A stretch of DNA of 64,000 nt from Thermomicrobiales bacterium (lineage in GTDB: Bacteria; Chloroflexota; Chloroflexia; Thermomicrobiales; UBA6265), in assembly GCA_046328335.1 (NCBI GenBank), contig JAXLWU010000005.1, positions 156,675 through 220,674 on the forward strand, written 5' to 3'. A program made the position numbers and the translations under genes. Below, piece by piece: positions 5,811-57,542 of this stretch (position 1 is the first letter of the stretch; each line of letters opens with the position of its first letter). The notes below the pieces were generated by a model. That model had not been told where the DNA came from. It ran no database searches and was given only the letters and a program-made list of their open reading frames with translations.

Positions 5811-6347
5811 TCAGAACGGGTTCGCGTTGTCGCACTCCGGTACGCAGACGCGGCCGGTCATGGTGCCGAAACCGCACCCGCAGAACTGGTTGCCGCTGCG
5901 CTTCGCTTCCTGGCAGTAGAAGTGGAATCCGACCATGTTGCGGCAGGAGGTGGCCTCCGGACCGTCGGTGCTGGTGCACTCCACCGCGTTGTTGCAGACA
6001 TTGGCGTCGCCGGAGTTGACGCAGACGTTGTTCCCCTCGACCGAGCGCTCGCAGCCGCAGATTTCGCCGGTTGCCGTGTGGCCGCAGGGGGTGGGATCGG
6101 CATTACAGATACCCACCGGTCCCCCACAGCGATCGGCGCGGCTGCCACCACCACCGCCACCGCCACCGCCACCGCCACCCTTCTTGCCTTTGCCTCCCTT
6201 CTTCTTGCGGGCGGCGGTCTCGTCGCCACCGAGGGCGGCCAGTCCCCCGGCCCCGAAGGCGGCCGCGGCCAGCAGGCGCAACGCGCGGCGGCGGGTTTGC
6301 GACGCGGACATGATGCTGGTGATCTCGTCGAATCGGGCGGTATCCAT
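5811..6347 (-). CDS. Secreted Cys-rich protein, paralog P1 (FD motif, Tat signal, K/G linker, Cys-rich domain)
   Basis: ATG at 6347 follows AGGAG. N-terminus is MDTARFDEITSIMSASQTRRRALRLLAAAAFGAGG, then KKKGGKGKKGGGGGGGGGGGGS, then about 20 Cys, ending ...GRVCVPECDNANPF. Confidence 0.7.
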   Translation of the reverse strand: MDTARFDEITSIMSASQTRRRALRLLAAAAFGAGGLAALGGDETAARKKKGGKGKKGGGGGGGGGGGGSRADRCGGPVGICNADPTPCGHTATGEICGCERSVEGNNVCVNSGDANVCNNAVECTSTDGPEATSCRNMVGFHFYCQEAKRSGNQFCGCGFGTMTGRVCVPECDNANPF

Positions 6348-6710
6348 CGTGGTCTCCTCTCGCCTGGTGTCTGTCATCCCTGGCCGGAGGTCCCGGCTCC
6401 ATGGACGCAGCATGCGGCAGAGGAGCGGCCGCGACCGGCGCGGGGGACACCGCGTGGGTGTGTTCTCTGACACAGGGGAGGCGGCCGAGCAGAGCGACGA
6501 TCCGTCGCCAATGCGAGTCCTCGAACACGCGGGGAACAGGGCTCGGGTGATCTGTTCTCTGCGTGCCGGCTGCTAGCGTGCTGTCATGGAAGGCCTGGCT
6601 GGGCTGGACTTACACCGGGCACGAGTCAGTGACAACGAGGGTGCCAACAGCGCCGAGTCCAACACCATCGCACCCGTTTGTTCAAGCGTAATCCTCGTTC
6701 AGGAGTCGGA

Positions 6711-7733
6711 GTGTCAGAGAAGACCATCATCGCTAAGTCGAGCAGTGGACCGAACTTGACACATCAGGGTATACTCGCGTCCTTAGGACGCGAGTATACC
6801 CTGAGCGAGAGATTACCTATATCCCAGAAGACGGCTGCTACTGCACTTCTTGAACAACTCGCCGACCAACATCGCCGTGTCGTGTCCGAGTGGCGCGCCC
6901 TCATCATCCTCCGCAAGGCGACGTTTGAACTCGCGCCATCCCAACGGCGCTGGTCACACCTCCCCCAGGAACCGGGCGACCTCTATCCGCTTTTTCGGCA
7001 AATGCGCCAGCGCGGCGAACTCAAGCCGATCCGCGGCCTCCGTCATTTCTACCAAGTGACCGTCCCCTTTGCGCGGACCGAGCCGCTTGAAGAGGAAGAG
7101 GTCCTGCTGGAAGCCCATCCCTACGCGGCGCTGAGCCACCTTTCGGCGCTTGTCTTCCATGGCCTGACCGACGACCTGCCCAAGGGACTCACCGCCACGG
7201 TCCCGCTCGATGGGACAGGAGACCAACTTCCGCTCGATACCCAGCCGCAGGATTGGGAGGGCGTGCCGCTTGTCCGCGGCCGTATGCCCGAGCGCATTCT
7301 TGGTCGTCCCGTCTCCTGGCATCAGGTCAAGCCGGAGCGATTCTTCGGCGTGAGGGTCTATCAGCCGCGTGGATATCCGGTGCGAGTGACGACACTCGAG
7401 CGGACATTGCTGGATGGTTTGCAGGAGCCTGAACTTTCGGGTGGGGTGGAGAATGTGCTTCGTGCGTGGGCGCTCGCCCGCGACACCCTGGATCTTGATG
7501 TCCTCGCGCACTACGTCGACCGCTTCGCCATCGCGCTTCTCGGCCAGCGCGTGGGATTTATCCTGGAAGAACTCGGTTTGTTTCACCCCCGGCTCGAGGC
7601 GTGGCGGGACAATGCTCATCGTGGTGGATCGAGCAAGTTGGTGGCATCGGCCCCGTACTCTCCAGACTATAGTGAGCGATGGAATCTCTCATTGAACGTG
7701 CCGATTACCGCGCTGCATGACCAGAGTCAGTGA
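6711..7733 (+). CDS. abiEi: AbiEi-family antitoxin / transcriptional regulator (type IV TA); start uncertain
   Basis: The C-terminal part (TLERTLLDGLQEPELSGGVENVLRAW...YVDRFAIALLGQRVGFILEELG) looks like an AbiEi antitoxin domain. The stop overlaps the AbiEii start in GTGA. GTG at 6711 follows AGGAG, but a 39-nt palindrome inside the 5' end suggests a later start. Confidence 0.7.
   Translation: MSEKTIIAKSSSGPNLTHQGILASLGREYTLSERLPISQKTAATALLEQLADQHRRVVSEWRALIILRKATFELAPSQRRWSHLPQEPGDLYPLFRQMRQRGELKPIRGLRHFYQVTVPFARTEPLEEEEVLLEAHPYAALSHLSALVFHGLTDDLPKGLTATVPLDGTGDQLPLDTQPQDWEGVPLVRGRMPERILGRPVSWHQVKPERFFGVRVYQPRGYPVRVTTLERTLLDGLQEPELSGGVENVLRAWALARDTLDLDVLAHYVDRFAIALLGQRVGFILEELGLFHPRLEAWRDNAHRGGSSKLVASAPYSPDYSERWNLSLNVPITALHDQSQ
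6765..6803. promoter_or_regulatory. Perfect 39-nt palindrome, candidate AbiEi operator
   Basis: CAGGGTATACTCGCGTCC-TTA-GGACGCGAGTATACCCTG has 18-nt perfect arms. It lies in an AT-richer stretch at the 5' end of the abiE module, just after a TTGACA hexamer at 6756. Confidence 0.5.
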
Positions 7734-55819: not shown

Positions 55820-56940
55820 ATTCACGGCCGAGTCTCCTCTATCTCACCCCGGTCACCCCTGCCCGAACCGGGAACGGGTTGGCGATGCGCGCCGGAGCGG
55901 TGCTCATGGCGCTCGTCCGCCATTACGATGTCACGCTCGCGATCGTGCCGCGCTACGGTGACCGCGCCGATGCGCTGCCGGAGGCATTGCGGGCGGCTTG
56001 CCGGCGGGTGGTGCGCCCTGGCGACACGCCGGGGCTGGATGAACGGGAACGGTTCGATGTCGTGCATTGCTTCCGGCTCGCCATGGCGCCGGTTGCCGCG
56101 CCTTGGCTGGACCGCGCCGGAGCGTGGCATCTCGATCTGGATGAGATCGAATCGGAGAGCCGTATGGCCATCGCCGCGCTCCTGGCGGCGAACGGCGACG
56201 AGGCGCGGGCACGACAGGAACGCGAGGCCGCGGCGCGAGCCCGGCAGGCAGAGGACGAGGCGCAGGCGCGGTTCGACCGCGTCTATATCGCCGCGGCGGA
56301 TGACCGCGACCGTCTACTGGCGCGGGAGATCGCCGGCGCCGCGGTTGTCGTCCTCCCGAACACTCTCCCCGATCCCGGATTCTCGCTGTCCCCGCCCCCG
56401 GCGGGTGGAGCGCTGCATCTCCTCTTCGTCGGCACGCTCGGCTACGCGCCGAACGCCGACGCCGTGCGGTTTTTCGCCCGGGAGGTCCTGCCCATCCTGC
56501 GCGACGGCGACGTGGCGACGCGCTTCGTGGTCGTAGGAACGGGATCGGGACCAGACGTGGGCCGCCTGGCGGGCATCCCCGGCGTGACCCTGCTCGGTGA
56601 GGTGCCGGACGTGGTTCCCTGCTATCGCGATGCCCACGTCGCGCTGGCGCCGCTGTGGGCCGGTGGCGGCACCCGGATCAAGATCCTGGAGGCCTTCGCC
56701 CTGCGGCGGCCGGTGGTCACCACCACAATCGGCATCGCCGGCATCGCCGCCGACCACGGCCGCCACGCGCTCATCGCCGACACACCTGAGACCTTCGCCG
56801 CGGCCTGTCACCGGCTCCACGGGGATCAGCGGCTGGCATCGCACATCGTGGACGAGGCTTTCGCCCTCTTTCGCCGCTTGTATACGGATGACGTGCTGGT
56901 CCCCATCGTCGCGCCCGATCCCTCCGTGTCAAAGGATTGA
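55816..56940 (+). CDS. Family 4 (GT-B, group 1) glycosyltransferase
   Basis: LLFVGTLGYAPNADAV...LLGEVPDVVPCYRDAHVALAPLWAGGGTRIKILEAFALRRPVVTT. GTGA overlap with the GT2 gene. Confidence 0.85.
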   Translation: MNSRPSLLYLTPVTPARTGNGLAMRAGAVLMALVRHYDVTLAIVPRYGDRADALPEALRAACRRVVRPGDTPGLDERERFDVVHCFRLAMAPVAAPWLDRAGAWHLDLDEIESESRMAIAALLAANGDEARARQEREAAARARQAEDEAQARFDRVYIAAADDRDRLLAREIAGAAVVVLPNTLPDPGFSLSPPPAGGALHLLFVGTLGYAPNADAVRFFAREVLPILRDGDVATRFVVVGTGSGPDVGRLAGIPGVTLLGEVPDVVPCYRDAHVALAPLWAGGGTRIKILEAFALRRPVVTTTIGIAGIAADHGRHALIADTPETFAAACHRLHGDQRLASHIVDEAFALFRRLYTDDVLVPIVAPDPSVSKD

Positions 56941-57023
56941 CCGCGCTGGTGTGCCCGATCTGACAGCCATGTCGGGTGTCTGCTCCCACACTCGTGAGCA
57001 TGAACTCACGAAAGGAGAAACAC

Positions 57024-57542
57024 GTGGACAGGATAGATTTCGATCGCGTCGCCGCCGTTTTCGCTCAGGCGCAAGATCGCCGGGGTGTGCTGCGCCTGCT
57101 GGGCGCGGCGATTGCCAGTGGTGGGACGGTGACGGTGTTGGCATCGACCGAAATCGACGTGAAGGCCAAGAAAAAGAAGCATCGCAAGCCGACCTGCAAG
57201 GATGGCCGCAAGAATGGCTCCGAGACTGATGTCGATTGCGGCGGGTCGTGTCCGCGCTGCAAGGTGACGAAAACGTGCCAGAACCGGGACGACTGCGTCA
57301 CCGCTCTCTGCGAGGGCGGCGTCTGCATCGAGCCGGAGAACGCCACCGATTGCGGTCTCGATGCCGGTGGCGGGAACTGCGCCACCCGCGTCAACAGCGA
57401 CAACGTCAGGATCTGCACCAAGATCAATGGCCGCTTCTTCCTCGACGGGACCTGCCAGGATCGATGCCGCGGCGAAGAGCAGTGCGTGCTGCCGGTGAGC
57501 GGTGGAGTGGAGTGCGTGCTGCCGTGTGGCGTGGCGGCCTGA
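57024..57542 (+). CDS. Secreted Cys-rich protein, paralog P6
   Basis: GTG follows AAAGGAG. N-terminus (M)DRIDFDRVAAVFAQAQDRRGVLRLLGAAIASGG, then KAKKKKHRKPTCKDGRKNG, then ETDVDCGGSCPRCKVTKTCQNRDDCVTALCEGGVC... Confidence 0.75.
   Translation: MDRIDFDRVAAVFAQAQDRRGVLRLLGAAIASGGTVTVLASTEIDVKAKKKKHRKPTCKDGRKNGSETDVDCGGSCPRCKVTKTCQNRDDCVTALCEGGVCIEPENATDCGLDAGGGNCATRVNSDNVRICTKINGRFFLDGTCQDRCRGEEQCVLPVSGGVECVLPCGVAA

Follow-up and report, generated by a model that had tools for sequence, protein, structure and literature searches.

The Tat (twin-arginine translocation) pathway is thought to carry folded and often cofactor-bearing proteins, and disulfide-rich proteins are the textbook cargo of the Sec pathway. 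A 64-kb stretch of Thermomicrobiales DNA (G+C 66%), called the window here at its whole length, holds six genes, P1 to P6, whose products all start with a leader of about 40 residues, the FD-RR leader. We propose that the six are probably pre-proteins, in which this one homologous leader, a specialised Tat signal chiefly for disulfide-rich secreted proteins, is joined to unrelated cargo.

Several described leaders come close. In the pairs TorA/TorD, DmsA/DmsD and NapA/NapD, a long n-region before the twin arginines is recognised by a cytoplasmic proofreading chaperone. The ESPR of autotransporters and the YSIRK-G/S and KxYKxGKxW motifs of Gram-positive surface proteins are conserved extensions of Sec signals, found in Proteobacteria and Firmicutes. 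The light chain of methylamine dehydrogenase, MauA (TIGR02659), is a small, heavily disulfide-bonded periplasmic protein with a long twin-arginine leader. The Tat signals themselves have an SRRxFLK motif, a core of at least 12 residues that is less hydrophobic and richer in Gly than in Sec signals, and basic residues in the c-region that serve as Sec-avoidance signals, and an R-to-K substitution in the motif is poorly tolerated (PMC7317946). Tat rejects most unfolded proteins, and in Escherichia coli the Tat export of a disulfide protein depends almost wholly on cytoplasmic disulfide formation (PMC9995818).

A first-pass annotation of the window had pointed out six open reading frames (ORFs) as one group, and all of them are present at the positions and on the strands it gave. 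A GGAG-type purine-rich ribosome-binding site precedes each start by 5–10 nt. The starts also fit the wider leader family, where Met lies exactly 5 residues ahead of the Phe of FD in 99% of the members, and P3 and P6 use GTG at this place. The N-termini follow the plan M/V-D/E-x-x-x-F-D-x-(L/I/V), except in P5, where the leader lacks one residue and FD is replaced by ID. In all six, the RR pair comes 13–14 residues past this F or I and is followed by an uncharged Ala/Gly/Leu stretch, and 9–11 Lys/Arg fall within the first 30 residues past the hydrophobic stretch. The RR motifs are TRRRALR in P1, SRRGILG in P2, TRRSVVA in P3, PRRTFGS in P4, SRRAALG in P5 and DRRGVLR in P6.

P1 (5811..6347, minus strand, 178 aa) has its leader in residues 1–46 (nt 6210–6347), then the tail RKKKGGKGKK with 12 Gly and a 14-Cys domain. 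P2 (8768..10255, plus strand, 495 aa) has its leader in residues 1–44 (nt 8768–8899) and an Arg-rich tail. Short Cys-rich linkers come next in P2, one of them spaced in a knottin-like way, and then the pentapeptide repeats and an NHL propeller of six blades. P3 (26269..26799, minus strand, 176 aa) joins leader residues 1–41 (nt 26677–26799) and the tail KKVLKCNKRQ to a part with 24 Cys in 135 aa. P4 (27029..28693, minus strand, 554 aa) has leader residues 1–41 (nt 28571–28693), an Arg/Lys-rich tail and a cargo of 68 Cys that includes three modules with the knottin-like spacing C-C-CC-C-C. P5 (54493..54900, plus strand, 135 aa) starts with the variant leader MGSLIDDV...SRR, residues 1–39 (nt 54493–54609), and continues with the tail NQKKRRRFKK and 12 Cys. 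P6 (57024..57542, plus strand, 172 aa) has leader residues 1–45 (nt 57024–57158), the tail KAKKKKHRK and 16 Cys.

The Cys counts of P1 to P6 are thus 14, 20, 24, 68, 12 and 16, every one even. The first-pass annotation had given a range of 13 to more than 60, of which the minimum is really 12. It had also given a Cys-rich domain to every member, and this is right for all but P2, which is mostly pentapeptide repeats and propeller with just 4.4% Cys in its mature part. P5 is identical to a hypothetical protein from a Thermomicrobiales metagenome-assembled genome (MAG).

P1 is overlapped by an antisense ORF (5935–6576, plus strand) that reads poly-Pro opposite the 12-Gly run of P1. The two frames have their third codon positions in common, so codon composition and the G+C content at these positions are unable to pick one of them. 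The coding of P1 is supported by its leader match and by a metagenome homologue in locus L132 (phmmer E 4e-57). The antisense ORF is also 'conserved' in that homologue, as a by-product.

What the six share is the leader. Compared pairwise by BLASTP in a six-sequence database, the first ~40 residues are mutually similar with E values of 2e-7 to 1e-3, and the mature parts are not, with a best E of 0.3. Similar leaders on dissimilar mature parts mean that the shared item is the leader and not a protein family. Hence the common N-terminus reported in the first pass is truly homologous, while its description of six paralogous proteins does not stand. The striking expansion that it saw in the window is real, but what has expanded is a class defined by its leader, to which these hypothetical proteins belong, and not one homologous family.

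The leader defines a large class by itself. A leader-only profile of 41 positions, made with the basic tail and the cargo excluded, was searched exhaustively against 1.84 billion cluster representatives (50% identity) and retrieved 2,700 of them at E≤1e-3, almost all aligned from residue 1. The 150 top-matching of these 2,700 leader representatives, the best 150 below, were used for the consensus, cargo and domain counts. Their consensus is M-D-G-x-R-F-D-x-L-T-R/K-x-L-A-x-G-x-S-R-R-x-V-L-R/K-G-L, and behind it lies an Ala/Gly-rich core of weak hydrophobicity. The FD-to-RR spacing is fixed among them without any insertion or deletion between the two, and RR is at +13/+14 in 124.

Specificity was measured with a hidden Markov model (HMM) made from 147 unrelated database leaders and scored against 16,671 ORFs. 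The six proteins obtained 46.5 (P2), 39.7 (P1), 29.3 (P5), 24.9 (P6), 23.9 (P4) and 21.2 bits (P3), with E values of 2e-12 to 1.5e-4, and no other ORF of the window scored above 9 bits, so the leader pattern is far beyond chance. No model in Pfam or NCBIfam covers the FD head. Word-indexed searches with short leader profiles gave 4, 1 and 18 matches, since among 5.8 billion sequences a profile so short is unable to attain significance. A tblastn search of plasmids with the consensus leader gave no match.

Since the leader search ignored the cargo, the cargo composition is an independent read-out. Among the best 150, 128 have at least 40 residues past the core, and in these the median Cys content is 13%, with at least 5% Cys in 112 of the 128. 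The Cys count is even in 93 of the 114 that have at least 4 Cys. Lys and Arg make up 20% of the first 25 mature residues versus 8% of the remainder in the best-150 set.

The same was seen in a replication with DNA. A pattern coding only M-D-x2-R-F-D-x-h-x3-h-x5-R-R was scanned over the JGI metagenome contigs and found at least 120 loci. Among the matches listed, 118 of 120 loci bear a leader ORF, and the 105 complete leader proteins have a median of 13.2% Cys, with at least 5% in 87. Among these matches too, the Cys count is even in 88 of 96 proteins, and 46 of the 105 have at least six Lys/Arg in the first 25 residues. Thus the coupling of RR leader, basic stretch and Cys-rich cargo, first noticed on the six, holds in hundreds of independent proteins that only their leader had picked out.

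As to the export route, the N-termini look like the twin-arginine type they were first taken for, with RR and a weakly hydrophobic core in 6/6. The strict motif (S/T)RRx(F/V/L/A/I)L(K/R) is present in 108 of 297 family members. Ala, Gly and Leu dominate the core, whose Kyte-Doolittle hydropathy averages 1.36 in the six and in the family alike. The c-region often reads (D/E)-x-A-D-A directly before Lys/Arg, a predicted small-x-small site that would leave the basic run as the new N-terminus. By a crude motif, small-x-small followed by Lys/Arg occurs in 4/6 window proteins and 150/269 family members. The curated Tat models match 25–34 of the best 150 at E≤1 (25 for TIGR01409), and short signal models seldom attain their cut-offs.

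The likeness to the curated Tat signals (TIGR01409 and PF10518) is in the S/T-R-R-x-hydrophobic-L-K/R motif, the Gly/Ala-rich core of low hydrophobicity, the predicted small-x-small site and the basic residues past the core. The FD-RR leader differs by its added head of a fixed 17 residues with invariant F-D, by its one cargo class of about 13% Cys, by a basic element that is a run of 6–11 Lys/Arg and not one residue, by an R-L subclass of 13%, and by scores below cut-off with the curated models.

In the mechanism that we favour, the chain would be brought to TatBC by its RR motif and its core of low hydrophobicity. The FD head goes beyond the needs of Tat as now understood, which implies a partner. 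The 17-residue head M-D-G-x-R-F-D-x-L-T-R/K-x-L-A-x-G-x would bind this partner, for which the likeliest candidate is a chaperone or proofreading factor of the cytoplasm by analogy with known Tat chaperones, and the partner would hold or vet the Cys-rich cargo. The head probably forms an amphipathic helix, one face of which would bear F, L and L (positions i, i+3 and i+7), although its helical moment is only marginally over that of shuffled sequences (p=0.075).

The dense Lys/Arg run past the predicted cleavage site probably blocks Sec export, as an exaggerated form of the Sec-avoidance signal that is classically a single basic residue (PMC7317946), and/or tethers the protein. After cleavage, the run would become a flexible cationic N-terminal tail, extended by 12 Gly in P1, by which the protein could be kept at the anionic envelope. 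The cargo itself would act outside the cell as disulfide-knotted modules, and its expression may often be controlled by an adjacent sensor of the STAND-TPR-HTH type.

A Lys-rich element with two Cys recurs directly past the leader (e.g. AHDLKAKCKKKSGDAKKKCLKKAKKHAAQHA) in P0038, P0046, P0064, P0088, P0090, P0114, P0116, P0131, P0147 and L241. This makes the basic linker of some subfamilies resemble a structured, conserved module more than a low-complexity spacer.

How do the other known leaders compare? A chaperone that reads the n-region, as for TorA, DmsA and NapA, would explain the conservation of the FD head. Those leaders, however, each serve one enzyme family with the chaperone encoded in the operon, whereas the FD-RR leader precedes thousands of unrelated cofactor-less cargos with no recurrent chaperone gene. 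The ESPR, YSIRK and KxYKxGKxW extensions are possible analogues as lineage-restricted n-region motifs that mark a cargo class and are believed to adjust by which route, when or where secretion happens. They have no sequence similarity with the FD-RR leader and give no Pfam or NCBIfam match for the six, and the FD-RR leader is of the Tat type and in Chloroflexota. MauA is a natural precedent for Cys-rich cargo of the Tat type, and two family members weakly match its model TIGR02659 (best E 9e-4). It differs in being a single enzyme subunit with a tryptophan tryptophylquinone (TTQ) cofactor and mau maturation genes, and none of the six matches its model.

Several observations weigh against our proposal. 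Tat rejects most unfolded chains, so proteins of 12–120 Cys would need cytoplasmic oxidation or an exemption from proofreading. The clustered neighbour ORFs contain no partner gene for the FD head that recurs beside the leader genes, and a motif scan found neither tatA nor tatC within the window. TIGR01409 is below its cut-off for all six, P6 alone matching with 12.6 bits versus 16.7. A subclass of 19 among the best 150 reads TTRLTRLSxLRGL, with Leu for the second Arg and the cargo type unchanged. About 8–10% of the leader proteins are not Cys-rich, and the mature proteins are not globally cationic. The AlphaFold models made without deep alignments, with a pLDDT of 42 for P6 alone and 54 for P5 together with one homologue, are too poor to judge the fold.

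Because of the TRL leaders and the folding demand of Tat, a non-Tat or a Tat-plus-partner route stays as a rival. The leader could be a tag for another dedicated route or factor, such as a Sec signal whose conserved n-region sets the place or time of secretion, as in YSIRK or ESPR, or a peptide on which an oxidising or processing enzyme docks, and RR would then be incidental. This would suit a head conserved far past the needs of Tat with its start and spacing fixed, the loss of the second Arg in 13% of the top leaders, the low scores of the six with the curated Tat models, and a highly Cys-rich cargo that might well be exported unfolded and oxidised outside. But the full consensus S-R-R-x-V-L-R/K is kept in most members, the core is Gly/Ala-rich with the low hydropathy given above, and the run of 6–11 Lys/Arg past the core should block Sec export (PMC7317946). 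Moreover, clustering of the neighbours revealed no candidate machinery that recurs beside the leader genes. We regard this alternative as unlikely, though it fares best among the rivals.

The TRL subclass comprises P0004, P0007, P0011, P0015, P0017, P0019, P0025, P0034–P0037, P0039, P0119 and others. Its leaders, FDxLxKxxxTTRLTRLSxLRGL, are one residue longer, and its tails are K/G-rich and its cargo Cys-rich as in the other leader proteins.

The six might instead be true paralogues of one secreted Cys-rich ancestor, whose mature parts diverged beyond recognition while the leader was kept. Cys-rich secreted proteins do evolve fast, and a few weak hints of common modules exist. By hhalign, the best pair is P3–P6 with 29% probability over a 36-residue Cys hairpin, all other pairs having 13% or less, and P1 and P3 align with z=2.2. 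P1 and P3 also share a rare C-terminal ending.

However, when a pool of 341 leader-bearing proteins was searched by phmmer and iterated HMMs for each cargo, every cargo with relatives drew its own, with zero overlap and the six falling into disjoint families. The relatives are L132 for P1, P0069 and the four tandem genes of L243 for P2, L165 and L157 for P3, P0002 for P5, and L173 and P0052 for P6; P4 has none in this pool. The pentapeptide repeats and NHL propeller of P2 are clearly another fold. Family-wide, the leader precedes Stig1, Dicty_CTDC, Disintegrin, TonB_C, M23 peptidase and non-Cys cargo, which indicates leader shuffling. Common descent of the six whole proteins is thus improbable.

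The C-terminal endings are ...RVCVPEC in P1 (5811–5840), ...LRCLPSC in P3 (26269–26295) and the variant ...VECVLPC in P6 (57510–57542). The ending shared by P1 and P3 had been noted in the first pass. It is real and rare, C(V/L/I)PxC being present in the last 15 residues of only 2 of 200 Cys-rich family members, but no alignment backs a homology of the two. It may represent a small shared C-terminal module, judged from the sequence. L125 ends in ...NVCVPLCG and aligns weakly with P1 (z=3.7).

Two other recurrences were observed among the cargos. Locus L243 (32–3062, plus strand) has four tandem paralogues with the N-terminal plan of P2, namely the leader, the basic tail, 'CxPGxxCxPGKGxNxSxCDF' and pentapeptide repeats. 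A cargo domain, 'ICHxTGSxSNPWVxIxVxxxAxxAHxxHGD', recurs directly past the leader and has no Pfam family. Its carriers are P0008, P0016, P0018, P0022, P0024, P0028, P0053, P0057, P0126, P0142, P0143 and P0149.

The cargo is largely without known families. P1, P3, P4, P5 and P6 have no cargo match in Pfam or NCBIfam, sequence searches of the PDB with P3, P4 and P6 found nothing, and about 85% of the best-150 proteins lack a Pfam family. Those that match do so mainly with extracellular disulfide-rich modules, which are Stig1 (8 of the best 150), Dicty_CTDC (5), Disintegrin (3), Dickkopf_N (1) and Toxin_12 (1). The MXAN_6577-like Cys-rich proteins of NCBIfam account for 12 matches among the leader representatives. 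Single leader proteins carry TonB_C, M23 peptidase or pentapeptide repeats.

The spacing C-C-CC-C-C is found in 110 of 296 unique members versus a mean of 22 in shuffled sequences, a five-fold enrichment. P4 has three such segments and P2 one, and P1, P3, P5 and P6 have none. The likeness to the eukaryote-type disulfide modules (Stig1, Dicty_CTDC, Disintegrin, Dickkopf_N, Toxin_12 and MXAN_6577-like) is thus in the matches of leader-bearing relatives and in this spacing. None of the six window proteins reaches these models, and the knottin-like folds are putative.

Metal sites found little support. The six match no metal-cluster family (HiPIP or ferredoxin-like) in Pfam or NCBIfam, 1 of 150 relatives weakly matches an Iro/HiPIP-like model, and CxxC-type metal-site families are unmatched in the same databases by the six and their relatives. 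The even Cys counts, the knottin-like spacing and the Stig1, Dicty_CTDC and Disintegrin matches in the relatives favour disulfides, and the cargo sequences thus point to disulfide rather than metal chemistry.

These features bear also on whether the hydrophobic stretch is an uncleaved anchor, with the Cys-rich part either tethered outside or, by the positive-inside rule, kept in the cytoplasm for metal binding. A strongly basic stretch past a hydrophobic segment normally marks the cytoplasmic side, and Cys-rich domains can bind Zn or Fe-S. However, the core appears too weakly hydrophobic for a stable anchor, 150 of 269 members have a small-x-small motif followed by Lys/Arg, the related cargo matches extracellular disulfide families with even Cys counts and knottin-like spacing, and no family with CxxC-type metal sites matches. 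An anchor therefore has, in our judgement, a low probability.

Two other kinds of peptides were considered and rejected. Globally cationic defensin-like peptides do not agree with the net charge of the mature P1 to P6, which is -1 to +8 with the basic charge restricted to the first ~30 residues. Precursors of ribosomally synthesised and post-translationally modified peptides do not agree with the lengths of 135–554 aa (relatives to 793 aa), the signal-peptide core and the lack of modifying enzymes nearby. PADLOC gave no defence-system match for the six. Our guess for the role of the cargo is competition, adhesion or matrix.

The leader also differs from the ordinary Tat signals around it. A phosphoesterase (3377–4948) with a Tat-type N-terminus obtains 9 bits with the leader HMM, and an unassigned Tat-type protein starting with MESTRRFSRKTF (22647–23732) is unreported by it; both are without the FD head. 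A sugar-type periplasmic binding protein (15565–16794, minus strand), also unreported and likewise without the FD head, has a different long Tat n-region, 'RIDALLTDYFRGRISRRELA' or MLDDRKERRIDALLTDYFRGRISRRELA, which may stand for another conserved kind of n-region in this lineage. A crude scan of the window and related loci found 28 Tat-like ORFs without a leader match, with a median of 0.5% Cys. Just four of them reach at least 5% Cys, and all four carry degenerate FD-type heads.

The absence of the FD head from other Tat signals and their Cys content of 0.5% versus 13% indicate that the leader is something other than the lineage's generic Tat signal. Such a generic signal, combined by chance with unrelated proteins, might draw on the long Tat n-regions common in the window and on the 8–10% of leader proteins with ordinary low-Cys cargo, but it is largely refuted by these contrasts and very improbable. 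The first-pass annotation had named a generic signal and a lack of cargo homology as the findings that would undo its claim; the leader turned out to be specific, and the lack of homology is what we observed.

The leader genes tend to cluster, with six in the 64-kb window, six in 21 kb of L122, four tandem P2-like ones in L243 and, among the matches listed, at least two in 23 metagenome contigs that are mostly shorter than 4 kb. In the window, P4 and P3 are in tandem on one strand, with P3 downstream after a gap of 229 nt. A hairpin with a 12-bp stem (26191–26220) lies between the end of P3 and that of a gene for a fused homocysteine S-methyltransferase and methylenetetrahydrofolate reductase (24100–25998, plus strand), and is probably a bidirectional terminator. 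No shared upstream DNA motif was found among the six genes.

Divergent from P4 over a 281-nt gap, a regulator gene (28975..31563, plus strand) encodes 862 aa with the Pfam domains HTH_17, NB-ARC/AAA (STAND NTPase), TPR and LuxR/GerE HTH. When all non-leader ORFs from the leader-bearing loci were clustered, this STAND-TPR-HTH type was the only gene family recurring beside the leader genes. Its homologues adjoin them in 18 loci (17 besides the window, including L157, L161, L166, L180, L185, L216, L223 and L227), in about 13 within 1 kb, divergent or tandem upstream. The family is present in 8 of 23 loci of at least 4 kb. About 6% of the neighbouring ORFs belong to it, which is well above our expectation, although the count has no background control. 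By Pfam, the homologues combine the STAND NTPase and MalT-like TPR with an HTH that is LuxR/GerE at the C-terminus in some and of the XRE type at the N-terminus in others. From this recurrence, we infer that the 28975–31563 protein is a candidate regulator of P4 and P3.

A further pairing involves a gene for a thioredoxin-fold protein of 364 aa (53406..54500, plus strand) with an N-terminal membrane helix, a CPPC motif and an AhpC/TSA match of 29.8 bits versus a cut-off of 26. An 8-nt overlap of its stop with the start of P5 (ATGGGTAG) suggests that the two genes are translationally coupled, and the thioredoxin-fold protein may assist the thiol-disulfide chemistry of P5. A thioredoxin-type partner as a general feature was rejected, the pairing with P5 being seen once and none recurring in other loci.

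The other neighbours of the six in the window are unrelated housekeeping, toxin-antitoxin, glycosyltransferase and regulator genes. Between P1 and P2, overlapping genes at 6678–8605 (plus strand) encode an AbiEi-like/AbiEii pair of type IV toxin-antitoxin (PF08843, E 1e-25). Its G+C is 0.57–0.63 versus 0.65–0.71 of the flanks, and the pair is possibly a mobile insertion.

A bolder and rather doubtful version of our proposal is that an unrecognised Chloroflexota leader sends hyper-diverse knottin-like exoproteins through Tat and that the adjacent STAND-TPR-HTH sensors switch their genes on. More speculatively, the leader fragment freed by cleavage might be sensed by the adjacent TPR regulators, and it may thus be the ligand of the STAND sensors in analogy with the signal-peptide signalling of Firmicutes. 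If the bolder version is true, these proteins would be a bacterial counterpart of the eukaryotic small secreted cysteine-rich proteins. It would also mean that either oxidative folding takes place in the cytoplasm or Tat carries unfolded Cys-rich chains with the aid of a factor that reads the FD head.

As to its range, the leader is so far seen only in Chloroflexota, with a thin sampling. The named carriers, which are few, are Thermomicrobiales and uncultured Chloroflexia or Chloroflexi MAGs. One locus, L080, is labelled Solirubrobacterales, yet in its leader ORFs it reads just as the Thermomicrobiales locus L031 does. A full-text literature search found no description of the leader or of its protein class. 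What appears new, as far as sequences tell, is a subclass of Tat signals marked by its conserved head and polybasic tail and by a cargo class of its own.

The leader HMM gives a one-step route to a large unannotated set of small bacterial proteins rich in disulfides, among which binders, inhibitors or antimicrobials might be found, and the leader could act as an export tag for disulfide-rich proteins. The invariant FD head predicts a partner that is open to searching. If our proposal is true, a natural Tat-type leader for proteins of 12–120 Cys in thousands of clusters would offer direct access to the study of Tat proofreading and of how the monoderm Chloroflexota fold proteins oxidatively.

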